A DNA stretch of 64,000 nt from Candidatus Deferrimicrobiaceae bacterium (GTDB lineage Bacteria; Desulfobacterota; Deferrimicrobia; Deferrimicrobiales; Deferrimicrobiaceae): NCBI GenBank assembly GCA_963792415.1, contig CAWBVY010000007.1, positions 64,001 to 128,000 of the forward strand. The letters are read 5' to 3'. Position 1 is the stretch's first letter, and every line of letters begins with the position of its first letter. This document shows positions 27,645 to 45,719 of the stretch, in pieces. The notes below the pieces were generated by a model that saw nothing but the letters and a program-made list of their open reading frames with translations, ran no database searches and was not told the origin of the DNA. The position numbers and the translations under genes were made by a program.

Positions 27645-29621
27645 ATGCCCAACGGATCCATTTATCAGCGCATCAAGAGGGTCCTGCTGGGCGCTCCGCG
27701 CGACCTGTTCGACCCGAAGATCTTCCACAACATCTCCCTGATCGCCTTCTTCGCCTGGGTGGGGCTGGGCGCCGACGGGATCTCCTCCTCCTCGTACGGC
27801 CCGGAGGAGGCGTACCTCGCCCTGGGGAGCCACTCGGTGCTGGCGATCTTCGTCGCCGTGATGACGGTGGGGACGATCTTCATCATTTCCGGGAGCTACG
27901 CGCAGATCATCGAGGCGTTCCCGTCGGGCGGCGGCGGGTACATCGTGGCGTCGAAGCTGCTGGGCGAGAAGGCGGGCGTGGTCTCCGGCTCCGCGCTGGT
28001 CATCGACTACGTCCTGACGATCACCATCTCCATCGCGGCCGGCGCGGACGCCATCTTCAGCTTCCTGCCGCTCCATCTGATGCCGTACAAGATATGGTTC
28101 ACCTCCTTCGTCATCCTGCTGCTGATCTGGCTCAACCTGCGGGGGGTCAAGGAGTCGGTGATGGTGCTCACCCCGATCTTCCTCGCCTTTCTGCTGACCC
28201 ACGTCCCGCTGATCCTGTACGCGGTCCTTCGCCACCTTCCGGAACTGCCGTCCGTGGGCGCGCGGGTCTCCGCCGACCTCGGCTCCGCCTCCCGGGAAAT
28301 CGGATGGCTGGGCGTCGGAGCGCTGCTGCTGCGCGCCTACTCGATGGGGGCGGGCACGTATACCGGGATCGAGGCGGTCTCCAACTCGATGCAGACGCTG
28401 CGTGAGCCGCGCGTGCACACGGGCAAGAAGGCGATGGCCTACATGGCCCTGTCCCTGTCGTTCCTGGCCGGAGGGATCATCCTCGGGTACGTTCTGAACG
28501 ACGTGGTCCCGGTCCGCGGCAAGACGCTCAACGCCGTCCTTTTCAGCGGCCTGATGCACAATCTCTGGAACTCTGGGACGGCGAAGTACCTGGTCGCCAT
28601 CGTCCTGTTCACCGAGGCGGCCCTGCTCTTCGTGGCGGCGCAGACCGGCTTCCTCGGCGGGCCGCAGGTCCTCTCCAACATGGCCAACGACTCCTACATG
28701 CCCCACCGGTTCGCAAACCTCTCCGAGCGGCTGGTGACCAAGTACGGCGTCTACTTCATGGGCGGGATGGCGTTCCTGATGCTCTTCATCACGGGCGGCT
28801 CCGTCCGGTACCTCGTCATCATGTACTCGATCAACGTGTTCCTGACCTTCACCCTGTCGCAGTTCGGCATGGTGCTGCACTGGTGGAAGGACCGGGTGTC
28901 CGGGAAGAAGTGGAGGTTCGGTCTGGCGATGAACGGTGTCGGCTGCACCCTCACCGCCTCGATCCTGTGCGGCACCGTGTACATGAAGTTTCCGGAGGGA
29001 GGCTGGATCACCCTGCTGATCACGGGGTCCTTCATCGCGATGAGCTTCCTCGTCCGACGCCATTATCAACAGTCGCAGGAGAACATGCGGCGGCTGGACG
29101 AGCTGCTCCTCGCTCTTCCATCCGTCTCCGGTCGTTCCGCGGAAATGCCGCCGGCGCAGCCGCAGGCGCCCACCGCGGTCATCATGGTGTCGGGGTACAA
29201 CGGGTTGGGGATGCACGTCTTCTTCTCGATCATCCGCTCCTTCCCCGGGATGTTCCGGAACTTCATCTTCATCTCCGCGGGCGTCGTGGACACCAGCCGG
29301 TTCAAGGGGGTGGCGGAGATCGAGAACCTCTCGGAGGATCTGCGGGGCCAGCTGGAGAACTACGTCGAGTTCGTGAAGAACCACGGCTACTATGCGGAGG
29401 CCCGCCACCTGGTGGGCACCGACGTGATCGAGATCGTCGCCCGCCTCACCGAGGAGACGGCGAAGGACTTCAGCAACATCAGCGTCTTCGCGGGGAAGCT
29501 GGTGTTCAAGGAGGAAAATCTGCTCACCCGCCTGCTGCACAACCATACCGCGTTCCTGGCCCAGAAACGGCTGGTGTTCGCGGGTCATCCGATGATCATC
29601 CTCCCCGTGCGGGTGTTGTAG
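27645..29621 (+). CDS. APC-superfamily KimA/YdaO-like K+ transporter, copy 1
   Basis: ADGISSSSYGPEE, GGGGY, IDYVLT, TGIEAVSN, multiple TMs and a C-terminal cytosolic domain. Confidence 0.8.
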   Translation: MPNGSIYQRIKRVLLGAPRDLFDPKIFHNISLIAFFAWVGLGADGISSSSYGPEEAYLALGSHSVLAIFVAVMTVGTIFIISGSYAQIIEAFPSGGGGYIVASKLLGEKAGVVSGSALVIDYVLTITISIAAGADAIFSFLPLHLMPYKIWFTSFVILLLIWLNLRGVKESVMVLTPIFLAFLLTHVPLILYAVLRHLPELPSVGARVSADLGSASREIGWLGVGALLLRAYSMGAGTYTGIEAVSNSMQTLREPRVHTGKKAMAYMALSLSFLAGGIILGYVLNDVVPVRGKTLNAVLFSGLMHNLWNSGTAKYLVAIVLFTEAALLFVAAQTGFLGGPQVLSNMANDSYMPHRFANLSERLVTKYGVYFMGGMAFLMLFITGGSVRYLVIMYSINVFLTFTLSQFGMVLHWWKDRVSGKKWRFGLAMNGVGCTLTASILCGTVYMKFPEGGWITLLITGSFIAMSFLVRRHYQQSQENMRRLDELLLALPSVSGRSAEMPPAQPQAPTAVIMVSGYNGLGMHVFFSIIRSFPGMFRNFIFISAGVVDTSRFKGVAEIENLSEDLRGQLENYVEFVKNHGYYAEARHLVGTDVIEIVARLTEETAKDFSNISVFAGKLVFKEENLLTRLLHNHTAFLAQKRLVFAGHPMIILPVRVL

Positions 29622-29660
29622 CCGCCCCCGGGAACCCGTTTTCCCCCCCCTGCGACGGCG

Positions 29661-29675
29661 GGTGGTATAATCCGC
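29661..29675 (+). promoter_or_regulatory. Extended -10 promoter of the second KimA-like gene
   Basis: GGTGGTATAATCCGC duplicated with the gene. Confidence 0.6.
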
Positions 29676-29721
29676 CGGTCAAGCGCCATCATTCCACACG
29701 GACGGCGGGATCATCGGAGAC

Positions 29722-31701
29722 ATGCCCCCGGGTTCCAGGTACCAGCGAGCGAAACGGTTCCTGCTGGGCGCTCCGCGCGACCTGTTCGACCCGAAGATCT
29801 TCCACAACATCTCCCTGATCGCCTTCTTCGCCTGGGTGGGGCTGGGCGCCGACGGGATCTCCTCCTCCTCGTACGGCCCGGAGGAGGCGTACCTCGCCCT
29901 GGGGAGCCACTCGGTGCTGGCGATCTTCGTCGCCGTGATGACGGTGGGGACGATCTTCATCATTTCCGGGAGCTACGCGCAGATCATCGAGGCGTTCCCG
30001 TCGGGCGGCGGCGGGTACATCGTCGCGTCGAAGCTCCTCGGCGAGAAGGCGGGCGTGGTGACCGGATCGGCGCTGGTCATCGATTACGCGCTGACGATCA
30101 CGGTGTCCATTGCCGCCGGCGCGGACGCCATCTCCAGCTTCCTTCCGCCCATCTGGCTCCCGTACAAGTTCGAGTTCATCGCCCTGGTCCTCGGATTCCT
30201 CGTCTGGATCAACCTGCGGGGGGCCAAGGAGTCGGTGATGGTGCTCACCCCGATCTTCCTCGCTTTCCTGCTGACCCACGTCCCGCTGATCCTGTACGCG
30301 GTCCTTCGCCACCTGCCCGAACTGCCGTCCGTGGGCGCGCGGGTCTCCGCCGACCTCGGCTCCGCCTCCCGGGAAATCGGATGGCTGGGGATCGGGGCGC
30401 TGCTGGTGCGGGCGTACTCGATGGGGGCGGGGACGTACACCGGGATGGAGGCGGTCTCCAACTCGATGCAGACGCTGCGGGAACCCCGCGTGCACACGGG
30501 CAAGCGGGCGATGCTGTACCTGTCGTGCACCCTCGGCTTCATGGCGGGCGGGATCCTCCTCGGGTACGTCCTGAACGACGTATCCCCCGTTCCGGGGAAG
30601 ACGCTGAACGCCGTCCTGTTCGGCGGCCTGGTGGGGTCCCTATGGGATGCGGGCACCGCGAAGTACCTGACCGCCTTCGTTCTCCTCACCGAGGCGGTCC
30701 TGCTGTTCGTGGCGGCGCAGACCGGCTTCCTCGGCGGGCCGCAGGTCCTCTCCAACATGGCGGTCGACTCCTACATGCCCCACCGGTTCGCCCACCTCTC
30801 CGAGCGGCTGGTGACCAAGTACGGCGTCTACTTCATGGGCGGGATGGCGTTTTTGATGCTCTTCATCACGGGGGGATCCGTCCGGCTTCTTGTCATCATC
30901 TACTCCATCAACGTGTTCCTGACCTTCAGCATGTCGCAGTTCGGCATGGTGGTGCACTGGTGGAGGGATCGAAAGTCCGTGGAGGGGTGGAAGCACGGGC
31001 TGGCGGTCAACGGGATCGGCTTCTGTCTCACTGCGTCGATCCTGTGCGTCATCGTGGTCATGAAGTTTCTCGAGGGCGGGTGGATCACCCTGCTGGTCAC
31101 CAGCACCTTCGTGGCGGCGAGCTTTTTCGTGCGCCGCCATTACCGGAAGGCCGCCTACCACCTGCGCCGCCTCGACGACCTGCTCCTGAACCTCCCCCCC
31201 CCGACGACGCCCACCGCCCAGGAGCCGATGGTAAGGCGCCAGGCGCCCACCGCGGTCATCATGGTGTCGGGGTACAACGGGTTGGGGATGCACGTGTTCT
31301 TCTCGATCATCCGCTCCTTTCCCGGGACGTTCCGGAACTTCGTCTTCCTGTCCGTGGGCGTGATCGACACCAGCCGGTTCAAGGGGGTGGCGGAGATCGA
31401 GAACCTCTCGAAAAACCTGCAGGGGCAGCTCGTGAACTACGTCGAGTTCGTGAAGGGGCACGGCTACTACGCGGAGGCGCGGCACCGCGTGGGCACGGAC
31501 GTGATCGAAGTGCTCGACGGGATGGCGACGGACGTGTCGGTCGATTTCCCCAACGCCGTCTTCTTCGCCGGGCAGATCGTCTTCCAGGAGGAGAACTTCT
31601 TCAACAGGCTGCTCCACAACCAGACGGCGTTCCTCGCGCAGAAAAAGCTCGTGTTTTCCGGGCACCCGATGATCGTGATCCCGATCCGCGTCCTCGAATG
31701 A
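29722..31701 (+). CDS. APC-superfamily KimA/YdaO-like K+ transporter, copy 2
   Basis: Paralog of 27645-29621 with the same motifs. Confidence 0.8.
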   Translation: MPPGSRYQRAKRFLLGAPRDLFDPKIFHNISLIAFFAWVGLGADGISSSSYGPEEAYLALGSHSVLAIFVAVMTVGTIFIISGSYAQIIEAFPSGGGGYIVASKLLGEKAGVVTGSALVIDYALTITVSIAAGADAISSFLPPIWLPYKFEFIALVLGFLVWINLRGAKESVMVLTPIFLAFLLTHVPLILYAVLRHLPELPSVGARVSADLGSASREIGWLGIGALLVRAYSMGAGTYTGMEAVSNSMQTLREPRVHTGKRAMLYLSCTLGFMAGGILLGYVLNDVSPVPGKTLNAVLFGGLVGSLWDAGTAKYLTAFVLLTEAVLLFVAAQTGFLGGPQVLSNMAVDSYMPHRFAHLSERLVTKYGVYFMGGMAFLMLFITGGSVRLLVIIYSINVFLTFSMSQFGMVVHWWRDRKSVEGWKHGLAVNGIGFCLTASILCVIVVMKFLEGGWITLLVTSTFVAASFFVRRHYRKAAYHLRRLDDLLLNLPPPTTPTAQEPMVRRQAPTAVIMVSGYNGLGMHVFFSIIRSFPGTFRNFVFLSVGVIDTSRFKGVAEIENLSKNLQGQLVNYVEFVKGHGYYAEARHRVGTDVIEVLDGMATDVSVDFPNAVFFAGQIVFQEENFFNRLLHNQTAFLAQKKLVFSGHPMIVIPIRVLE

Positions 31702-32854: not shown

Positions 32855-33032
32855 GCGTTCGGTAGGCGTTTTCCGCGGGACCCGGACGCCGCGGGGAGGG
32901 CGATTCGCGGGATATCGTGACCCGTGGCGGGGAGACGTATCCCCGTCACGGGTCATGTCCCTTCCGGAGCCTTTCCCCCGGGCTCCGGGCCGTCGTGTCC
33001 CTTCCCCGGAAAACGTTTTCAAAGGAGGCCGC

Positions 33033-34823
33033 ATGACCACCGGTGAACCCAGGGACATGCTCGCCATCCTCGCCGGTCCCGGACCGGAGGTGTTCACCAC
33101 CCGCCCCGTCATCATGGGCACCCACGGCATGGTCACTTCCGGACATTACCTCGCCAGCAGGATCGGTCTTCACATCCTCGAGGAGGGAGGGAACGCGGTC
33201 GATGCCGGGGTGGCGATGGGATTCGCCCTGGCCGTGCTGGAGCCGTACATCTACGGCATCGGCGGCGAAGTGCCCATCCTCGTCTACCTCTCGGACGAGA
33301 AACGGGTCGTGAGCCTCTCCGGCCAGGGGCCGGCTCCCCAGAGGGCGACCATCGAGTGGTTCGGAAAGAACGGGATCGACGCCATTCCCGGCGACGGGCT
33401 GCTGGCCGCCGTCGTCCCCGACGCCGTCTCGACCTGGATCTCCGCGCTGTCGCGCTTCGGAAGCATGACCCTCTCCCAGGTCCTTTCCCCCTCCGTGGAG
33501 CTCGCGGGGCGGGGCTTCCCCATGTACGAGAGGCTCCGGTCCGCACTCGAGAGGAGTTCTCCGCAATTCCTGGAGATGTGGCCCTCCTCGGCGCACGCCT
33601 ATCTTCCCGGCGGCCGGATTCCGGCCGTGGGCGAAATCTATGTGCAGCGCGACCTTGCGGGATTCTTTACCATGCTCATCGACGCGGAATACCGGGAAAG
33701 GGGAAGGGGGCGCAGGGGTGCGCTGGCAGCGGCCCACGACGCGTTCTACAAGGGGGAAATAGGGGAACGGATCGTGAAATTCGTTCAGGAGCGCCGCCTC
33801 CCCGATTCGACGGGGAAGAGAAACGGCGGGCTGATCACGAAGGAAGACCTGCAGCGCTACGCGGCCCGGGTCGAGGAACCCGTGACGGCGAACTACCGGG
33901 GGTACGACGTCTTCAAGTGCGGCCCCTGGTCCCAGGGGCCGGTCTTTCTCCAGCAGATCAACCTGCTGGAAGGGTACGACCTGGCGGCGATGAAGCACAA
34001 CTCCCCGGAGTACATCCACCTCCTGATCGAGGTCGCCAAACTCGCGTTCGCGGACCGGGAAACCTGGTACGGCGACCCGGACTTCGCCGAAGTGCCCCTC
34101 GACGTTCTTCTGTCCAAGGAATACGCCGCGGCGCGCCGGAAGCTCATCGACCCGGGCACCGCTTCCATGGAGCTGCGCCCCGGCAATGCGCGCGCGTACA
34201 GGCCCCTGGAGAGGCACGGCGGCTCGGACATCCACAAGGGCGACACCACGCATCTGGACGCCATGGACCGGTGGGGGAACATGCTGTCCGCGACCCCCTC
34301 CGGCGGCTGGTTCCGCAGTTCGCCGGTCATCGAGGGGTTGGGCTTCCCCCTCGGAACCCGCCTGCAGATGTTCTCCCTGGATCCCGGCCACCCCAATGGC
34401 CTCCGGCCGGGGAAGCGTCCCCGCACGACCCTGACCCCCTCCCTGGCGCTGAAGGACGGCAGGCCGTACATGGCGTTCGGCACTCCGGGCGCGGACCAGC
34501 AGGACCAGTGGTCGCTCCAGTTCTTCCTGAACTGCGTGGACTTCGGCATGAACCTGCAGGTCGCGGTCGACGCCCCCACCTTCCACACGGGCCATTTCCC
34601 GTCTTCCTTCCACCCGCACGGCGCGGAGCCCGGGGCGCTTTACCTGGAGGGCCGCATCCCGGGGGAGACGATCGCATCCCTCCGGGAAAAGGGGCACGGG
34701 GTGCGGGTGGGGGGGGATTGGAGCCACGGCCGGGTTCTCGGCATCCGATTCGATGCCGGCAGCGGCACGATCTCCGGCGCGGCGACGGCACGGATGGAGA
34801 CCGGGTACGCCATGGGTTGGTAA
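33033..34823 (+). CDS. Gamma-glutamyltransferase-family Ntn hydrolase (candidate oxamate amidohydrolase, HpxW-like)
   Basis: GGNAVDA, KLAFADRE, autocleavage site GD/TTH, DRWGN, PGKRPRTTLTP, FGTPGADQQ; AAAGGAGG RBS. Confidence 0.88.
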   Translation: MTTGEPRDMLAILAGPGPEVFTTRPVIMGTHGMVTSGHYLASRIGLHILEEGGNAVDAGVAMGFALAVLEPYIYGIGGEVPILVYLSDEKRVVSLSGQGPAPQRATIEWFGKNGIDAIPGDGLLAAVVPDAVSTWISALSRFGSMTLSQVLSPSVELAGRGFPMYERLRSALERSSPQFLEMWPSSAHAYLPGGRIPAVGEIYVQRDLAGFFTMLIDAEYRERGRGRRGALAAAHDAFYKGEIGERIVKFVQERRLPDSTGKRNGGLITKEDLQRYAARVEEPVTANYRGYDVFKCGPWSQGPVFLQQINLLEGYDLAAMKHNSPEYIHLLIEVAKLAFADRETWYGDPDFAEVPLDVLLSKEYAAARRKLIDPGTASMELRPGNARAYRPLERHGGSDIHKGDTTHLDAMDRWGNMLSATPSGGWFRSSPVIEGLGFPLGTRLQMFSLDPGHPNGLRPGKRPRTTLTPSLALKDGRPYMAFGTPGADQQDQWSLQFFLNCVDFGMNLQVAVDAPTFHTGHFPSSFHPHGAEPGALYLEGRIPGETIASLREKGHGVRVGGDWSHGRVLGIRFDAGSGTISGAATARMETGYAMGW

Positions 34824-34854: not shown

Positions 34855-34932
34855 TTGACAGCAGCCCCCCCTCTGGCTATCCTGCATTGGTCTGACAATC
34901 AGTCTGTATACAGTATTCGGTCGGGCCACCAT
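34855..34932 (+). promoter_or_regulatory. Sigma70 promoter with FadR/GntR-type operator(s)
   Basis: TTGACA-17-TATCCT, then ATTGGTCTGACAAT (34886-34899), palindrome CTGTATACAG (34904-34913) and a degenerate TCGGTCGGGCCA. Confidence 0.7.
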
Positions 34933-34960: not shown

Positions 34961-37129
34961 ATGAAGACACCGGTCGTACGGTCAGAGGATCTCTCGCTTC
35001 GCGTCGCGAAGGCCTTCATCGAGGATGAGGGGAAGGGCCTCGCCCGCGTGGATGCCGATCAGCTGAAGGCCCTGGGGGCGGTGCCCGGCGACTGCCTGCT
35101 GATCACCGGCCGCCGGTCCACGGTGGCCCGCGCCGGCCATCTCACCCAGCATTACGAAGGCAAGGGCCTGGTGCAGATCGACAGCGTCACCCGGGACAAC
35201 GCGCAGATCTCCGTGGACGAGACCTGCACCGTCCAGAAGGTCCCCTCCAAGCTGGCCGACAGCATCATTCTCTCCCCCGTCGACGTGCGAAGCCAGCCCC
35301 CGAAGGAACAGGAAATCCCCCACATCCTCCAGCTGCTGTCCGGGCTCCACGTGGTGATCGGCGACCGCGTGCAGATCGTCCTGTTCGGAACCCGTCCGCA
35401 ATTCTTCATGGTGGAGGGGGCAAGCCCGCGGGGGGCCCTCCGGATCACCGCCCACACGGCCATCACCTTCCGGAGCGCCGATTTTGCAAGCGAAAAGGCC
35501 TTCAGGACCTCCTACGAGGACATCGGCGGCCTGGATAAAGAGTTGGGCCACATCCGGGAGATGATCGAGCTTCCCCTGAAATTCCCCGATCTGTTCACCG
35601 AGCTCGGCATCGATCCGCCCAAGGGGGTTCTCCTCTCCGGGCCGCCGGGAACGGGAAAGACCCTCATCGCGCGTGCCATATCGAACGAGGTGCGGGCCCA
35701 TTTCATCCACGTCAACGGACCCGAGCTCATCCACAAGTTCTACGGGGAGAGCGAGGCCAAGCTTCGTCAGGTCTTCGACGAGGCCCGGAAGAACTCCCCC
35801 AGCATCATCTTCTTCGACGAGATGGACGCCCTCGCCCCGAAACGGGCCAACGTCGTCGGAGACGTGGAAAAGCGCGTCGTGGCGCAGCTCCTGGCGCTGA
35901 TGGACGGCCTCGTCTCCCGCGGGGAGGTCGTGATCATCGGCGCCACGAACATGCCGGAACTCGTCGACCCGGCCCTGCGCCGCCCGGGGCGTTTCGACCG
36001 CGAAATCACGATCGGCGTGCCGAAGCGGGCCGACCGCCTCCAGATCCTCAAGATCCATTCCCGCAAGATGCCGCTCGCGGAGGATGTCGACCTGAAGCAT
36101 CTGGCCGAGATCACCCACGGATACGTCGGCGCGGACATTGCCGCTCTGTGCACCGAGGCGGGCATGGCGACGCTTCGGCGCATCCTCCCCTCGGTCAAGT
36201 TCCAGGTGGATGCCAAGCCCGTCCTGGAGGAAGGGTCGAAGATCCAGGTCACCGCCGGGGATTTCGTGTCCGCCTTCAAGGCGGTCGAGCCCACCTCGAC
36301 GCGGGAGTTCATGAGCGAGCGGCCGAACATCTCCTTCAAGGACGTCGGGGGGCTGCGCGGGATCAAGGAGAACCTCCTTTCCCTGATGCGGCTTCCCCTC
36401 CAAGGTTTTCCCCTCTTCGTCAATTCCCGCCTGAGCCCCCCAAGGGGCGTCCTCTTCTCGGGTCCCTCCGGAACGGGGAAAACCTTGATGGCCAAGGCGC
36501 TCGCGGGGGAGATGGGGATGACCCTCTTCATCGTCGACCCTCCAACCCTCCTTTCGAAGTGGGTCGGGGAGTCGGAAAAGGGGCTGAGGGAGGTCTTCAA
36601 GCGGGCGAAGCAGGCCTCTCCCTGCATCCTGTTCTTCGACGAGATCGAAGCCATGGCGCCGGCGCGGACCGCGGAAGATTCCGGCCAGGTCTCCCAGCGG
36701 ATCGTCAGCCAGCTGTTCCGGGAGCTCGACGGGCTGCCGAGTTCGCTGGGGATCGCGGTCGTCGCCGCGACGAACCGGATCGACCTGATGGAGCCGGCGC
36801 TGCTCCGGGCGGGACGCTTCGATTCCATCATCGAATTCCCCCTCCCCGGAAAGGAGGAGAGGGGCGAGATCCTGGAGTTGTACATGCAATCGCTGCCGTT
36901 CCGGACCGAGGTCGACATCGAGCTCCTCGCCGGCATGAGCGAGGGATGGACCGGGGCCGAACTCGAGGCCCTCTGCAAGAAGGCGGTCGTCGTGGTTCTG
37001 GAAGAGAGCCTCGCAAGGGGGGAGAAACTCGATTACATGCTCCTCAAGATCACGACGAAGCATTTCGACCAGGCGATCGAAAGGAACGGGACCTCTTCGG
37101 CGATCCGACCCCGCGCAATGAAGCATTGA
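34961..37129 (+). CDS. CDC48/VAT/p97-family double-AAA+ ATPase
   Basis: N-domain plus YEDIGGL; two AAA modules (GPPGTGKT/FFDEMD and GPSGTGKT/FFDEIE); KFYGESE, KWVGESE and RPGRFD/RAGRFD. Confidence 0.93.
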   Translation: MKTPVVRSEDLSLRVAKAFIEDEGKGLARVDADQLKALGAVPGDCLLITGRRSTVARAGHLTQHYEGKGLVQIDSVTRDNAQISVDETCTVQKVPSKLADSIILSPVDVRSQPPKEQEIPHILQLLSGLHVVIGDRVQIVLFGTRPQFFMVEGASPRGALRITAHTAITFRSADFASEKAFRTSYEDIGGLDKELGHIREMIELPLKFPDLFTELGIDPPKGVLLSGPPGTGKTLIARAISNEVRAHFIHVNGPELIHKFYGESEAKLRQVFDEARKNSPSIIFFDEMDALAPKRANVVGDVEKRVVAQLLALMDGLVSRGEVVIIGATNMPELVDPALRRPGRFDREITIGVPKRADRLQILKIHSRKMPLAEDVDLKHLAEITHGYVGADIAALCTEAGMATLRRILPSVKFQVDAKPVLEEGSKIQVTAGDFVSAFKAVEPTSTREFMSERPNISFKDVGGLRGIKENLLSLMRLPLQGFPLFVNSRLSPPRGVLFSGPSGTGKTLMAKALAGEMGMTLFIVDPPTLLSKWVGESEKGLREVFKRAKQASPCILFFDEIEAMAPARTAEDSGQVSQRIVSQLFRELDGLPSSLGIAVVAATNRIDLMEPALLRAGRFDSIIEFPLPGKEERGEILELYMQSLPFRTEVDIELLAGMSEGWTGAELEALCKKAVVVVLEESLARGEKLDYMLLKITTKHFDQAIERNGTSSAIRPRAMKH

Positions 37130-37156: not shown

Positions 37157-37915
37157 GTGAAGCATAAGTCGCAGATGTTCAAGCCGATCAAGAAGGCGAA
37201 GGTATACGAGGAGATTGTGACCAAGATCAAGGACATGGTCGAAAAAGGCCGGTTCAAGTCGGGAGACCAGCTTCCGGTGGAGCGGGAGCTGGCCGAGGTC
37301 TTCCGGGTGAGCCGATCCTCCGTCCGGGAAGCTCTCCGCTCCCTGGAGACCCAGGGATTCATCGAGAGCCGCCAGGGAGACGGGACGTACATCGCGAGCC
37401 AGCCCGTCGAGTCCCTGGTCCGCCCCCTTGCCTCCGTCATCCTCACGGAGAAGGACGATCAGATGGAGCTATTCGAAATGCGCCGGATGATCGAGCCGGA
37501 TCTCGCCTATCTCGCGGCGGAACGGGCCACCGAGGAAGAGATCGCCATGATGGAGAAGGTCCTCGCCCTTCAGGAAGAACAGATCGCCCGGGGAGAATTC
37601 GGGACGGACGTGGACAGGAATTTCCATTACATCATGGTGAGGGCGGCGAAAAACAAGGCCATCCTGCGCATCACCGACAACATCATCGACCTGCTCGCGG
37701 AGAGCCGCGAGCAGTACCTCCAGGTGGATGGAAGACCCCAGAAATCCATTTTACGCCACAGGGAAGTGCTCGATGCGATCCGTGCCAGGGATCCTGAGCG
37801 GGCCGAGAAATGCATGCTCGAGCACTTGGTGGATATCGAGACCAGTCTTTTCGGGACATCCGGGAGACGGAGGTCGAAGAGGGAATCGTCACCAGACTCT
37901 AACGAAAGGAGGTGA
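37157..37915 (+). CDS. FadR/GntR-family regulator (PdhR/LldR-like)
   Basis: GDQLPVERELAEVFRVSRSSVREAL wHTH and an FCD domain with D..FH...H...H. Confidence 0.93.
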   Translation: MKHKSQMFKPIKKAKVYEEIVTKIKDMVEKGRFKSGDQLPVERELAEVFRVSRSSVREALRSLETQGFIESRQGDGTYIASQPVESLVRPLASVILTEKDDQMELFEMRRMIEPDLAYLAAERATEEEIAMMEKVLALQEEQIARGEFGTDVDRNFHYIMVRAAKNKAILRITDNIIDLLAESREQYLQVDGRPQKSILRHREVLDAIRARDPERAEKCMLEHLVDIETSLFGTSGRRRSKRESSPDSNERR

Positions 37916-37978
37916 ACCGGAGTTCGCCGGGCAGTTCGTATCGATTCGTATCGTAGACAAAAGAAGGAGGAAAGCACA

Positions 37979-38593: not shown

Positions 38594-38616
38594 GGCAAAG
38601 GAAGGAGAAGAAAAAA

Positions 38617-41260: not shown

Positions 41261-41452
41261 AAAAAAATATTGAGTGCCACGCATCAATAAAACGGTTATT
41301 CTCAAGAAGTAGGTCAAATCGGCGTCGGACGCGACTGCGTGAAAAAATGGCCAGGGGATAATCGAAAAGGAAGGAGGTGTCCGCGCAGGCGGAGTCGCTC
41401 TTATGCGACCCTAGATGCTGATTTGAAAAATATTGCACGGGAGGATTCATCC

Positions 41453-42445
41453 ATGGGGAAAAGGTATTCAGGTCTGAAGATCGGTCTGGTCGTCGCATGC
41501 TCTTTGGCGTTGGCGTTCACTTCCATCGGTACGGCAAACGCCTGGGTGCCTGACAGGCCGGTAGAGTTCATCGTTCCGGCGGGCGCCGGCGGCGGCGCGG
41601 ATGTCATGGCAAGGTTCATCTCCCCCCTCGTTTCCAAGTACAAACTGTCGCCGAAGCCTTGGGTCGTCATCAACAAGTCCGCAGGCGCCGGGGCGGAAGG
41701 CTTCATGTACGTGAAGGGCCAGAAGGGCAACGCGAACCTCATCATCATCACCCTCGACAACCTGTTCACGACCCCCCTGGCTACCGGGGTTCCCTTCAAC
41801 TGGAAGGACCTGACCCCGGCTTCCCGCCTGGCGCTCGACTACTTCTGCCTCTGGGTCAACAAGGCTGAGGGCTACAAGACCGCCACGGAGTATCTTGACG
41901 CCGTCAAGAAAGCGCCGGGCAAATTCGTCATGGGCGGCACCGGAGCGAAGCAGGAAGACCAGATCATCACCGTCCTGCTCGAGCAGGCCTTCGGACTGAA
42001 ATTCAATTACGTGCCGTTCAAGGGCGGCGGAACGGTGGCCGTCGAGCTCGTCGGCAAGCACATCAACTCGTCCGTCAACAACCCGGCCGAGGCGAGGAGC
42101 CACTGGAAGAACGGGACCCTGGTGCCGCTGGCGACGATCGATTCCGCGCGGATCGCCCTGCCGGACTGGGATCAGATCCCCACGATGAAAGAGGCCACCG
42201 GCAAGGACCTCAGCTACCTGATGCTGCGCGGCATCTTCCTGGCGCCCGGGGTGAAGCCGGAAGTCGTGGCTTACTACGTCGATACGTTGAAGAAGGTGAC
42301 GGAAACCCCGGAATGGAAGAAGTACATCGCCGACAACGGGCTGAAGGATGCCTACCTGACGGGGCCGGAATTCGTGAAATGGCTCGAGGATAAGGAATCC
42401 ACGACCAAGGACCTCATGGCGAAAGGCAACCTGTTGAAGAAGTAG
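41453..42445 (+). CDS. tctC: Tripartite tricarboxylate transporter substrate-binding protein
   Basis: Signal peptide; PVEFIVPAGAGGGADVMAR, NKSAGAG, YVPFKGGG. Confidence 0.9.
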   Translation: MGKRYSGLKIGLVVACSLALAFTSIGTANAWVPDRPVEFIVPAGAGGGADVMARFISPLVSKYKLSPKPWVVINKSAGAGAEGFMYVKGQKGNANLIIITLDNLFTTPLATGVPFNWKDLTPASRLALDYFCLWVNKAEGYKTATEYLDAVKKAPGKFVMGGTGAKQEDQIITVLLEQAFGLKFNYVPFKGGGTVAVELVGKHINSSVNNPAEARSHWKNGTLVPLATIDSARIALPDWDQIPTMKEATGKDLSYLMLRGIFLAPGVKPEVVAYYVDTLKKVTETPEWKKYIADNGLKDAYLTGPEFVKWLEDKESTTKDLMAKGNLLKK

Positions 42446-42542: not shown

Positions 42543-43031
42543 ATGCGAAAGGCCAATCTTGGGGTGGCCATTTTCCTGTTTTTGATCGGCGCGATCGTCA
42601 TGTACGACGCGGTGCGCCTCGGATGGCACTATGACCCGGCGTCCGGTCCGGGAGCCGGCTTCCTGCCGTTTTATCTGTCCCTGGGCGTGCTCCTCTGCAC
42701 CAGCGTTTTCATCGTCAAGCAGGTCATGCAACTGTCGAAGATCGGGGTCGTGGGAGACACGCCGTTGATCCAGGAGGGGGGGCTGAAGCCGATCCTCTGG
42801 GTGCTGATTCCATCGACGGCCATGGTAGTCCTCATTCCCCTCATCGGGCTCCACTTCGCGGCCTGCATTTATCTCCTGTTCTACATGCGGGTGGTCGGAA
42901 AGATCGGATGGCTCGAGTGCATCCTGGTGAGCGTCCTGTTCCCTATCGGGTTGTACATCGTTTTCGACCGGCTGTTCCTGATTCCATTGCCGGACGGGAT
43001 GCTCGGAAATTATATCAAGCTTCCATTTTGA
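42543..43031 (+). CDS. tctB: TTT small membrane subunit
   Basis: GPGAGFLP, four TMs, VFDRLFLIPLPDG. Confidence 0.88.
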   Translation: MRKANLGVAIFLFLIGAIVMYDAVRLGWHYDPASGPGAGFLPFYLSLGVLLCTSVFIVKQVMQLSKIGVVGDTPLIQEGGLKPILWVLIPSTAMVVLIPLIGLHFAACIYLLFYMRVVGKIGWLECILVSVLFPIGLYIVFDRLFLIPLPDGMLGNYIKLPF

Positions 43032-43050: not shown

Positions 43051-44562
43051 GTGGCGGAGAATTTTCACCAGCTGATGATGGGCATCAGCGTCTCGATGCA
43101 GCCGTACAATTTCATGATCGCCATGATCGGGCTGGTGCTCGGGGTCATCGTGGGCGTCCTTCCGGGATTGGGGGGAGCCAACGGGGTCGCCATCCTCATC
43201 CCCCTCACGGTGGCTATGCAACCCATCTCGGGCATCATCCTGCTGGCGAGCATCTACTGGGGAGCGCTCTACGGCGGGAGCATCACGTCCATCCTGTTCA
43301 ACATCCCCGGGGAACCGTGGTCCGTTGCGACCACGTTCGACGGCTACCCGATGGCAAAGAAGGGGAATGCCGGAAAAGCGCTCGTTCTGTCGTTCTTTTC
43401 CCACTTCGTCGGCGCGGTGCTCGGCGTCATCATGTTGAGCTTCTTCGCGCCTCTCATCGCGGCCTTTGCGTTGCGGTTCGGTCCCGCCGAGATCTTTTCC
43501 GTGATGGTGCTCACATTCAGCGCGTTCGTGGGCTTAAGCGGGAAGGATCCTTATAAAACGCTCGTCTCCATCTTTCTCGGGTTCATCCTGGCCGCGGTCG
43601 GGATGGACATCGTCACTGGACAGTTGCGAATGACGTTCGGTTCGATCGACCTGATGGGCGGGTTCAACTTCATCGTCGCGGTCATCGGCCTGTTCGGGTT
43701 GGGGGAGATCTTCCTCACGGTCGAGGAAGGCCTCAAGCTCGAGTCGACGGAGGGCGGCAGGGTCACGTTCAAGGATATGGCGTGGGGAGTAAAGGAACTG
43801 ATTATTGAATGGAGGGCGCTTCTGCTGGGCTGCCTCATCGGGTGCTGGATGGGTCTCAAGCCCGGCGGCGCGACCCCCGCCTCCTTCATGGCGTACGGGT
43901 TCGCCAAGCAGAGCAGCAAGAAAGGCGACGAATTCGGGAAAGGGGCTTCCGCGGGGATCATCGCCCCCGAAGCGGCCGCCCACGGCGCGGGAACGTCCGC
44001 CGCGCTTCCCATGATCACCCTGGGAATCCCCGGATCGCCTACCATGGCCGTCATCATGGGCGGTCTCATGATCTTCGGGCTGCTGCCCGGACCGATGCTC
44101 TTTGTGGAACACCCCAGTTTCGTATGGGGCTTCATCGGCAGTTGCTGGATCGGAAACTTCATCGGCCTTCTGGTCGTGCTGGCGTTCGCGCCGGTGTTCG
44201 CAGCGGTCCTCAAGATCCGGTTCGCCATCATCATGCCGATCATCGTTTACGTCTGCTCCATCGGCGCCTACGCCGTGAACAACCGGATGATCGACATCTA
44301 CTACATGATCGGGTTCGGCGTCATCGGATATCTCTTCAAGAAACTCGACTATCCTCTCGCGCCGTTGGTCCTGGCGCTGGTGCTGGGAGACATGGCGGAG
44401 TCCGCGTTGCGGCAGGCGCTCCTCATTTCCGGGGGCAGCCCTCTCGTCCTGGTCCAACCCCCCATCGCGCTGCCGATCATGGTCGCGGCGGGGCTCATCT
44501 TCTTCTGGCCGTCGATCTCTGGTATAATAAAGAAAAGGCGCGTAAAGGTCGGACCCGGCTGA
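43051..44562 (+). CDS. tctA: TTT large membrane subunit
   Basis: GVLPGLG, YGGSITSILFNIPG, FDGYPMA, APEAA, TLGIPGS. Confidence 0.93.
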   Translation: MAENFHQLMMGISVSMQPYNFMIAMIGLVLGVIVGVLPGLGGANGVAILIPLTVAMQPISGIILLASIYWGALYGGSITSILFNIPGEPWSVATTFDGYPMAKKGNAGKALVLSFFSHFVGAVLGVIMLSFFAPLIAAFALRFGPAEIFSVMVLTFSAFVGLSGKDPYKTLVSIFLGFILAAVGMDIVTGQLRMTFGSIDLMGGFNFIVAVIGLFGLGEIFLTVEEGLKLESTEGGRVTFKDMAWGVKELIIEWRALLLGCLIGCWMGLKPGGATPASFMAYGFAKQSSKKGDEFGKGASAGIIAPEAAAHGAGTSAALPMITLGIPGSPTMAVIMGGLMIFGLLPGPMLFVEHPSFVWGFIGSCWIGNFIGLLVVLAFAPVFAAVLKIRFAIIMPIIVYVCSIGAYAVNNRMIDIYYMIGFGVIGYLFKKLDYPLAPLVLALVLGDMAESALRQALLISGGSPLVLVQPPIALPIMVAAGLIFFWPSISGIIKKRRVKVGPG

Positions 44563-44651
44563 GCCAAGCGGGCCGAAGCCATTTTTATCGGAACTTGTTG
44601 GATATAAAGGCGAAATGCATCTGTGACCGTACGTCCGGTACTTGGAACTGA

Positions 44652-44709
44652 GAAGAAGCGGCCTGGGGGAAGGGCACCGTACCCCATCCTTGGCCGCTTC
44701 TCTTTTTTT
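44652..44709 (+). terminator. Intrinsic terminator after tctA
   Basis: GAAGCGGCC...GGCCGCTTC followed by TCTTTTTTT. Confidence 0.6.
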
Positions 44710-44723
44710 CCGGGGATCCGGCG

Positions 44724-45665
44724 ATGACGTCGCCGGGAAAGATCCTCATCACCGGCGGCGCAGGGTCGTGCGGGAGGCATCTGACCGCATCGCTCCTGGG
44801 GCGGGGGTACGAGGTGCGGGTGATCGACAAGGACGTGGAGCCCCTCCGCTCCGTCGCGAACAAGGGGCTTGCGCTCTTCCGGGCCGGGGTGGAAGACAGG
44901 GACGCCCTGAAGTCGGCGGTGGATGGGGTGGACGCCGTCCTCCACCTCGCCTGGTCTTTTTCCGAAGATCCCCTGGTCGTCCTGGAGCAGGACCTGAGAG
45001 GCCACATCTACCTGCTCGAGGAGATGGCCTCCCGGAAAGTACGGCACCTGATCTACGCGAGCACGGCGGTGGTGTACGGGAAACCTCGGTATTCCCCCAT
45101 CGACGAACAGCATCCCCTTCTCGTGGAAGAGGCGAGAAAACCCCTCTACGGGATCGCGAAGGCCGCCGCCGAGAAACTGTGCCTGATGTACGGAAAGACC
45201 AAGGGACCGCCGGCCACCGTCGTCCGTTTCTGGTGGGCGTACGGGGACGATATCGGCGGCAAACATCTGCGAGAGATGCTCAAGACCGCCTCGGCGGGAA
45301 CCCCCCTGGAGGTCCCCGGCGATTCCGGCGGATCATTCCTCCACATGGCGGACCTGGCGCAGGGGATGGAACGATGTCTTTTCAACCCCAAGGCGTACGG
45401 GCGGACCTGGAATTTCTCCACCGTCTACGTCACCTGGGAAGAGGTGGCGGAAATGGTCCGCGACGTGACCGGCTCGCGCTCCGGGATCCGGAGCATCCCC
45501 AGGGAGGAATGGACGGGCGCTGCGTTTCTTTCCGACCGTTGGGAATTGTCCGATTCCGCGGCCAGGGAATTCCTCGGTTTCCGTCCCATGGACGCCGCTG
45601 CGGCGAAGGCATCCCTGAAAGTCGCGATCACCAACTGCTGGGAGGCGATGCGCAGGAATACGTAA
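44724..45665 (+). CDS. NAD-dependent epimerase/dehydratase (extended SDR)
   Basis: ITGGAGSCG, ASTAVVYG, YGIAK (YxxxK). Confidence 0.88.
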   Translation: MTSPGKILITGGAGSCGRHLTASLLGRGYEVRVIDKDVEPLRSVANKGLALFRAGVEDRDALKSAVDGVDAVLHLAWSFSEDPLVVLEQDLRGHIYLLEEMASRKVRHLIYASTAVVYGKPRYSPIDEQHPLLVEEARKPLYGIAKAAAEKLCLMYGKTKGPPATVVRFWWAYGDDIGGKHLREMLKTASAGTPLEVPGDSGGSFLHMADLAQGMERCLFNPKAYGRTWNFSTVYVTWEEVAEMVRDVTGSRSGIRSIPREEWTGAAFLSDRWELSDSAAREFLGFRPMDAAAAKASLKVAITNCWEAMRRNT

Positions 45666-45719
45666 TCCCTCCGTAACGATAAGATCCCAATCCCCTGGTA
45701 AGAGAAACGATGGAGGTAT

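Follow-up and report, generated by a model that had tools for sequence, protein, structure and literature searches.

Archaeal Cdc48/VAT proteins (Thermoplasma VCP-like ATPase; PDB entries 5g4f, 5g4g and 5vc7) consist of an N domain followed by two AAA rings, D1 and D2, with aromatic pore loops in both rings and full sets of Walker and Arg-finger motifs. The same architecture was found in a CDC48-type ATPase encoded in a stretch of 64 000 nucleotides from Candidatus Deferrimicrobiaceae bacterium (contig CAWBVY010000007.1), which was analysed as a whole and is referred to as the window (G000:C7:64001-128000, in a genome of 2.84 Mb in 11 contigs). The protein differs from Cdc48/VAT in having no C-terminal HbYX motif, in coming from a genome in which no 20S proteasome was found and in scoring below the cut-off of TIGR01243; its clade differs in being a separate bacterial one that is tied to a single enzyme, oxalate oxidoreductase (OOR). 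Judged from gene context and phylogeny, the ATPase is very probably a dedicated component of the OOR module. The fuller proposal, that it is a client-dedicated unfoldase or 'segregase' which would act on OOR in order to assemble or reactivate it, is given a probability of about 0.5.

Among bacterial homologs, actinobacterial Cpa is likewise described as a Cdc48 homolog without the classical HbYX motif; it differs in forming an actinobacterial cluster of its own and in interacting with the bacterial proteasome (PMC6017811). The same article describes 'sporadic' bacterial Cdc48 homologs that lie inside the archaeal cluster, are horizontal acquisitions and have no function assigned (Ziemski et al., 2018; PMC6017811). 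The present clade is of this 'sporadic' kind, now with a specific genomic partner. The CDC48 paralogs that accompany gas-vesicle genes in Desulfobacterota (see below) are alike in being bacterial, of archaeal type, without HbYX and embedded in one specific gene cluster. They differ in belonging to another clade, with HSP20-like, GvpL/F, GvpG, GvpA and GvpN-like neighbours and no OOR nearby.

Rubisco activases (Rca, CbbX, CbbQ/O) and the cofactor-exchange reactivases of diol/glycerol dehydratase and of ethanolamine ammonia-lyase are single-ring AAA+/MoxR or Hsp70-like proteins whose activity has been demonstrated. The logic proposed here would be analogous, an ATPase encoded with one enzyme freeing dead-end states of its active site. 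The differences are that the ATPase is a CDC48 double ring, that the client would be a thiamine pyrophosphate (TPP)/[4Fe-4S] enzyme and that the role is a proposed one, drawn from gene context. To our knowledge, enzymes in the family of 2-oxoacid:ferredoxin oxidoreductases (OFORs) have no dedicated chaperone. The words AAA, chaperone, maturation and reactivat- are all absent from a 2026 review of pyruvate:ferredoxin oxidoreductase (PMC13768988), and a full-text literature search returned no report linking oxalate oxidoreductase with CDC48 or AAA; subscription papers lay outside the scope of this search, and an earlier remark on the Moorella neighbours is possible.

Linkage of CDC48 and OOR

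The genes of the window lie on the + strand in the order gamma-glutamyltranspeptidase (GGT), CDC48, GntR/FCD regulator, oorG, oorD, oorA, oorB, tctC, tctB, tctA (Table 1). OorA and OorB both score over the cut-offs of their equivalog models, and OorA aligns over its full length with the crystallised Moorella alpha subunit. The genome contains one CDC48 and one OOR.

A survey from the CDC48 side kept 80 genome-contig loci, 13 of which have at least 71% identity to the window CDC48. The arrangement CDC48-GntR-oorG-oorD-oorA(-oorB-tct) was kept in all 11 of these loci with enough flanking sequence; the contigs of the remaining two end at CDC48 (L015) and after GntR (L019). The other 67 loci, which are more distant (39-51% identity) and for the most part archaeal, have no OOR beside CDC48. 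GGT is missing upstream in L016, L017 and L057, and the 5' boundary of the conserved block is therefore the CDC48 gene.

Of 401 genomes sampled evenly from the same phylum, ten have OorA over the NCBIfam cut-off and 49 have a CDC48 at E <= 1e-120; the neighbourhoods of all 54 non-window CDC48 places and of three OOR places were mapped. CDC48 stands beside OOR in 10/10 of the OorA genomes. Eight of these modules are intact on one contig, the contig of G262 starts inside CDC48, and the module of G364 is split, with CDC48-GntR-oorG at one contig end and oorD-A-B-tct on another contig. Two genomes with partial OorA matches (G388 and G203) also have CDC48 beside OOR. Identities of the OOR-linked proteins to those of the window are 48-52% for CDC48 and 60-66% for OorA. 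No OOR link was seen in 38 of the 49 CDC48 genomes, and a 3.6-kb contig of G036, with a CDC48 of 62-63% identity, is too short to judge. An OOR-like paralog in G291 (428.9 bits, below the cut-off) has GntR and no CDC48 within 19 kb.

The class was covered by a census of 77 genomes, in which OorA was found at E <= 1e-100 in 21; G410, with OorA in two frames (L226:10594-11785), brings the number to 22. Both genes were present in 22/77 genomes and OOR without CDC48 in none; four genomes have CDC48 at a contig end (G455, G463, G402 and G404) and 51 have neither gene, although three of the 51 (G412, G418 and G437) carry a CDC48 of another kind with 47-49% identity. The CDC48s of the 22 OOR genomes have at least 74% identity and adjoin OOR wherever both genes share a contig; the two genes are on separate contigs in G407 and G411, and CDC48 is in two frames in G431. 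No statistical test was applied to these counts because the genomes are kin. The OOR module occurs in 9/28 genomes of the window's genus, and the genomes of this genus without OOR are also without this CDC48.

OorA was also found over the cut-off in two of the 301 genomes from the phylum of G466; one of them, G595, has CDC48-GntR-oorGDAB with a CDC48 identical to that of L217. No OorA was found in 301 genomes sampled from the phylum of G464, and no OOR in the genomes of five bacteria with a CDC48 outside the clade (those of L064, L054, L024, L065 and L027).

A metagenome scan with the OorA alignment (A1, first row G375) yielded 80 loci, of which 43 contain CDC48. Where at least 3 kb is present on both sides of oor, CDC48 was found in 20/21 loci, and in 21/23 where at least 2.5 kb is present; five low-GC loci (L161, L163, L165, L167 and L169) are near-duplicates. 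L150 has a Fic gene in 2.7 kb upstream, no downstream sequence and no CDC48, and two further CDC48-less loci with longer flanks are considered below; in the other 34 the sequence stops too near oor, on one side or both, for a judgement. CDC48-GntR-oor is the commonest order. Also present are GntR-CDC48-oor (as in G375), oor-GntR-CDC48 (L158 and L175), CDC48-oor without an intervening regulator, and a convergent CDC48 after oor (L202, L209, L223 and L224), the regulator of L223 being a divergent LysR in place of GntR.

The pairing holds for the Moorella-type enzyme with a fused delta subunit. L173 (GC 0.60) contains GntR/FCD, CDC48 (735 residues), fused delta (316 residues), alpha, beta and a transporter of the lactate-permease family, and an SLH-domain protein is encoded close by; its alpha subunit matches the crystallised Moorella alpha 5c4i_A with 773.7 bits over 388 residues. 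L161 (GC 0.44) contains a permease, CDC48 (703 residues), fused delta (547.5 bits), alpha and beta, and downstream of these lie NifS and two GntR genes; its alpha scores 817.4 bits on NF045791 and 673.8 bits against 5c4i_A. The initial annotation of the window had suggested, as a point to check, that the oor genes of Moorella likewise have an AAA ATPase gene and a GntR gene next to them; this is supported in close relatives, L173 showing the matching order (GntR-CDC48-OOR delta/alpha/beta).

In all four trees that were calculated the OOR-linked CDC48s form a single group, free of unlinked sequences, irrespective of regulator and gene order. Support in the SH-like approximate likelihood-ratio test (SH-aLRT) was 100 for tree 1 (85 rows × 725 columns, LG+C20 with posterior mean site frequencies [PMSF], quick search, 13 OOR-linked rows), 98 for tree 2 (77 rows, LG+G4, quick search, 42 OOR-linked rows of which 12 are from genomes and 30 from metagenomes, five near-duplicates being left out), 98 with an ultrafast bootstrap (UFBoot) value of 100 for tree 3 (45 rows, LG+G4, careful search, 21 OOR-linked rows; one group in 100% of 200 bootstrap trees) and 99 for tree 4 (the same 45 rows and 21 OOR-linked rows, PMSF). 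Sequences under ~590-640 residues were left out of the trees. The root was not inferred, and 'clade' therefore assumes a root outside the OOR-linked group. The window protein falls within the archaeal-type CDC48 radiation. A tree of OorA+OorB has the same major groups as the CDC48 tree; the patristic distances correlate with r = 0.87 (0/2000 permutations as high), and CDC48 has evolved ~1.8 times faster than OorA+OorB. The clade has been inherited, lost and transferred together with OOR, with near-obligate linkage across lineages, gene orders and regulators. Co-occurrence of the clade with oorA, which had been set down in advance as the check, was strongly positive in genomes, class census, metagenomes and trees; the closest homologs are not in unrelated contexts, as every clade member with enough flank adjoins OOR.

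Clustering of the neighbours at 43 non-OOR loci gave one family just upstream of CDC48 in 19 and another just downstream in 20. Members from L104 and L102 were assigned by Pfam to HSP20 (upstream) and GvpL/GvpF (downstream), and the same two loci also hold GvpG, GvpA, an AAA_5 (GvpN-like) protein and a sigma-54 response regulator with a PAS kinase. The largest bacterial CDC48 clade therefore sits in gas-vesicle clusters (L095-L119 in the Desulfobacterota sample, e.g. L104:8473-14298 and L102:4619-14113). A full-text literature search on gas vesicles and Cdc48 listed only work that is haloarchaeal or unrelated. G373 has two CDC48 paralogs: one stands next to OOR and belongs to the OOR clade, the other falls in the clade that is elsewhere found in gas-vesicle clusters. 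This pair suggests paralog specialisation, and the contrast between the gas-vesicle and OOR clades argues for client-specific paralogs.

The CDC48-type protein

The CDC48 open reading frame starts with ATG, and its translation ends with ...RPRAMKH. Approximate domain limits are 1-180 for N, 181-455 for D1 and 456-722 for D2. Pfam placed CDC48_N (PF02359, double-psi barrel) at residues 13-94 with 62.7 bits (cut-off 35.1), AAA (PF00004) on two stretches with 290.8 bits and AAA_lid_3 twice. The Walker A motifs are GPPGTGKT at 227 and GPSGTGKT at 501, the Walker B motifs IIFFDE at 282 and ILFFDE at 556, the aromatic pore loops KFYGESE at 259 and KWVGESE at 533, and the Arg-finger segments PALRRPGRFD at 337 and PALLRAGRFD at 612. 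The initial annotation was right in these respects: it had described an intact N-D1-D2 CDC48 in which the two sets of Walker A/B motifs, the Arg fingers and the aromatic pore loops are all present, and a C-terminus that ends in PRAMKH instead of HbYX. The two AAA modules are in tandem and of the classic clade, complete with Walker A/B, sensor-1 and the SRH arginines. From the conserved pore loops and Arg fingers the protein would form a hexameric double ring that threads its substrate. The closest solved structures are VAT (5g4f_A, 620 bits) and, next, p97. TIGR01243 was matched over the full length (residues 12-708, profile positions 3-709 of 733) with 760.9 bits, below the curated cut-off of 802.65, and the protein is therefore named CDC48-type, of a divergent subclade, rather than a model-level member. 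CDC48_2 was absent among the matches listed for the window protein (25 of 30 families) and was detected in the L173 homolog.

The C-terminus (...AMKH) has no penultimate Tyr. Many of the archaeal relatives compared end in ..YFG, ..YVG or ..FYR; an Hb-Y-X ending was found in none of the listed bacterial CDC48s of the Desulfobacterota sample and in none of the OOR-linked homologs. The sole PF00227 match in the genome is hslV, directly beside hslU. Two other genome matches (open frames of 632-636 residues) cover one AAA module only and would, by their size, be FtsH-like.

The Walker A/B motifs, the KFYGESE pore loop and the Arg fingers of D1 are invariant or at least 90% conserved among the OOR-linked homologs (21/21 aligned). 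The D2 motifs are kept in most of the 21 proteins.

Organization and transcription of the locus

The coordinates of the module are given in Table 1. The intergenic gaps from CDC48 through gntR, oorG, oorD and oorA to oorB are 27, 63, 23, 20 and 38 nt. The CDC48 stop is at 37129 and the regulator starts with GTG at 37157, so the 27 bp spacing to the next gene in the initial annotation stands, whereas its name for that gene, fadR, does not: the regulator belongs to the FadR subfamily (FCD) of GntR proteins without being FadR, and its best NCBIfam matches are NanR/PdhR/LldR, every one under the cut-off. A GntR-type gene adjoins CDC48/OOR in most related loci. A direct repeat, TTCGTATCGA / TTCGTATCG, lies at 37935-37953 in the gntR-oorG spacer, just 5' of the oorG ribosome-binding site.

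Table 1. Features of the CDC48-OOR module and its flanks in the window (positions of the 64 000-nucleotide stretch)
Feature	Position	Strand	Evidence or remark
Gamma-glutamyltranspeptidase (GGT) gene	32955-34823	+	Directly before CDC48
Promoter-like site, then putative operator block	34855..34930	+	Conserved among 9 related loci
TGGTCTGAC	34888-34896		Within putative operator block
Palindrome CTGTATACAG	34904-34913		Within putative operator block
GGTCGGGCC	34919-34927		Within putative operator block
CDC48-type double-ring AAA+ ATPase, 722 aa	34961..37129	+	Pfam, motifs, clade membership by trees
GntR-family regulator, FCD ligand domain, 252 aa	37157..37915	+	Pfam GntR 75.7 bits, FCD 103.7 bits
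oorG, OOR domain-III subunit, 204 aa	37979..38593	+	NF045790 202.8 bits, profile positions 14-206 of 316; Pfam POR
oorD, 2x[4Fe-4S] ferredoxin-domain subunit, ~115 aa	38617..38964	+	NF045790 86.1 bits, profile positions 226-315
oorA, OOR alpha subunit, 397 aa	38985..40178	+	NF045791 597.8 bits (cut-off 500); 5c4i_A 517.7 bits
oorB, OOR beta (TPP-binding) subunit, 325 aa	40217..41194	+	NF045792 602.3 bits (cut-off 590)
tctC, tripartite carboxylate transporter	41339-42445	+	Pfam TctC
tctB, tripartite carboxylate transporter	42543-43031	+	Pfam TctB
tctA, tripartite carboxylate transporter	43051-44562	+	Pfam TctA

The delta subunit (316 model positions) is split in the window into a domain-III gene and a ferredoxin-domain gene, each of which scores <230 bits alone. 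oorG covers what is, in the fused delta of Moorella type, the N-terminal two thirds, and oorD has its own GGAAGGAG ribosome-binding site. The split occurs in Desulfobacterota-type modules; Moorella-like contigs have a single fused gene of 316-328 residues (L161:7002-7988; L173:7029-7979). In RNA-library contigs of run X16 the short oorG-oorD spacer has 1-nt indels (38596-38597). Other variants of the enzyme were also observed. In L213 (6160-7965; also L177) the ferredoxin subunit is replaced by a 601-residue fusion of a GltD-like flavoprotein (Pyr_redox_2 + Fer4_20) with a 4Fe-4S dicluster domain, and this type may be an NAD(P)-linked oxalate oxidoreductase. The lineage with convergent CDC48 has an extra fused POR-gamma + 2x[4Fe-4S] protein between oorB and CDC48 (L223:10247-11245), and in L196 and L201 a second, distant OFOR gene set (31-34% identity) occupies this place. 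The C-terminal tails of OorA and OorB were compared in search of a CDC48-linked feature; the variable Pro/Ala/Val-rich tail of OorB was considered and rejected, as the CDC48-less locus L159 has it as well.

The tctCBA genes probably encode the uptake system of the module; they are syntenic among close relatives and are absent or placed elsewhere in other lineages. A 344-residue open reading frame after tctA (44642-45676) has no Pfam or NCBIfam match; its position is kept in close relatives (47-80% identity), with TerC-family genes next to it. Upstream of GGT are two tandem paralogous amino-acid permease genes (~658 residues, 27645-31701), and the permease pair with GGT is syntenic in the closest relatives only.

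Upstream of CDC48, TTGACA (34855-34860) is followed after a 17-nt spacer by TATCCT (34878-34883). The -35 hexamer and a 44-bp block at 34887-34930 are invariant or nearly so among 9 related loci, the C-rich spacer between them being variable. This conservation makes 34887-34930 a putative operator; its TGGTCnGAC motif presumably resembles FadR-type operators. The count of TGGTCNGAC in the window is 1, against 3.2 expected. The operator-bearing promoter of the initial annotation draws its support from the conserved block; the promoter scan itself was no better than chance (the promoter and terminator scan was at chance level overall, with 2 promoter-like sites found and 1.9 expected). The scan placed no + strand terminator-like site between the CDC48 start and the oorB end; it placed + strand sites at 34816 and downstream of oorB. 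CDC48 and the oor genes are both covered by RNA-library contigs from runs X16 and X18, and gntR and oorG are bridged by a contig of X15. DNA carry-over is possible in these libraries, the contigs give no expression levels, and gaps (e.g. CDC48 in X15, gntR in X16) are not evidence of silence. CDC48, gntR and oorGDAB are probably co-transcribed from one oxalate-responsive promoter.

Possible roles of the ATPase

If OOR is the client, the ATPase would spend ATP on pulling at one of the OOR subunits or on unfolding it in part. In an assembly role, this pulling would allow the buried TPP/Fe-S active site to be put together; in a repair role, the site would be opened, emptied and reloaded after the formation of dead-end cofactor adducts or damage to the clusters. 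Remodelling for assembly or repair is favoured for three reasons. TPP is buried between the alpha and beta subunits in OFORs; OOR does not use coenzyme A, is without the coenzyme A-dependent release step and, according to the title of a 2017 study by Pierce et al., is subject to suicide inactivation by pyruvate; and joint induction with the enzyme is more in keeping with a helper than with a destroyer. Both OOR as the client and a direction of effect towards activation or repair rather than removal are suggested by these considerations. A more specific version is tentative, and we regard it as possible but on balance doubtful: the clade would be an ATP-driven repair motor for the TPP/Fe-S enzyme, which would recognise stuck OOR, pull out a subunit and allow cofactor exchange. 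Its targets would be OOR with a dead-end acyl- or hydroxyethyl-TPP adduct (e.g. after exposure to pyruvate) or with damaged clusters.

Several observations weigh against a role of CDC48 on OOR. The case for an interaction between the two draws wholly on gene neighbourhood and phylogeny, and the co-phylogeny (r = 0.87) would be produced by plain linkage alone. Native Moorella OOR is said to have been purified in active form with no mention of a helper. Two metagenome loci have no CDC48 within long flanks: L213 (at least 4.8 kb on both sides; OorA 535 bits and thus over the cut-off, flavoprotein-fused delta, GntR and an MFS transporter) and L159 (2.8 kb upstream and 7 kb downstream; OorA 616 bits; order MFS-MarR-oorGDAB-GntR-OmpA). 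In G647, OorA lies on a 2.3-kb contig and CDC48 was not found in the assembly. In L161 the D2 ring has lost the Glu of Walker B, the aromatic residue of its pore loop and one Arg; L173 and L170 also have an altered D2 pore loop, and these losses imply that D1 may be the essential ring. Only 12 clade-specific residues were found, scattered over N, D1 and D2 apart from a small N-domain insertion around P114/E118; since the N domain holds no concentration of them, they point to no docking surface. Finally, CDC48 is in two frames in G431:C1:117340-119506 and L018:10001-12167, and in G203 (L134) it is truncated at ~residue 465, with OorA in two frames. These may be assembly errors or decaying modules; if they are real, the gene is maybe dispensable.

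The alternative that survives best, although it is unlikely, is quality control or turnover, in which the unfoldase would remove OOR that is oxygen-damaged, or unneeded once oxalate is gone, and feed it to HslV, ClpP, Lon or FtsH. Proteins of the CDC48/VAT type classically feed proteases, OFOR-type Fe-S enzymes are oxygen-labile and the linkage data are equally compatible with such a role; however, the protein has no HbYX tail, no 20S proteasome was found in the genome and no protease gene is conserved among the modules examined, and co-induction of an enzyme and its own destroyer from one promoter would be unusual.

Regulatory remodelling is improbable. Here the client would be the adjacent GntR/FCD repressor or another regulator, which would be stripped from DNA or unfolded in order to switch the operon. 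A GntR-like gene is indeed present in 36/43 of the CDC48-bearing metagenome loci and directly follows CDC48 in the window, but CDC48 stays while the regulator varies: L223-type loci have the divergent LysR, no GntR match was found in L196, L202, L209, L223 and L224, the GntR genes of L161 lie >2 kb downstream of oorB, and the G291 paralog described above has GntR but no CDC48.

We consider it slightly less probable still that a general proteostasis or stress unfoldase is hitch-hiking with a mobile OOR island. The module is patchy (9/28 genomes of the genus) and also occurs in the sample of another phylum, which suggests block transfer. Against hitch-hiking, proximity is kept through at least four gene orders and at ~45-50% CDC48 identity, genomes without OOR are without the clade, and G373 keeps its second paralog elsewhere. 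The initial annotation had preferred a dedicated factor to a general proteostasis factor, and the distribution of the gene, including its absence from same-genus genomes without OOR, supports that preference. Its fuller interpretation, in which the ATPase would be a maturase or reactivase in the manner of Rubisco activase, is supported in part, and the specific function is putative. Assembly or insertion of a transporter or another envelope component of the oxalate module, for which the position of tctCBA after oorB in the window's clade might speak, is the least probable reading, as CDC48-OOR persists where the locus has another kind of transporter (Tct, lactate-permease family, MFS) or none.

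With a clade of CDC48 that follows a single enzyme from lineage to lineage, the CDC48 and OFOR fields have a concrete, testable pairing. The pairing suggests how an enzyme that is by report pyruvate-sensitive can work inside pyruvate-rich cells, and co-expression of the ATPase may be needed for heterologous production of OOR for CO2/oxalate biocatalysis. If the tentative repair-motor proposal is true, no 2-oxoacid:ferredoxin oxidoreductase would have had a known reactivase before this one, and a first function would be given to the 'sporadic' bacterial CDC48s. Eukaryotes have domesticated CDC48-type motors as Pex1/6, Rix7 and Afg2; taken with the gas-vesicle clade, the same proposal would mean that bacteria have, in like manner, repeatedly domesticated archaeal CDC48 as single-client machines.

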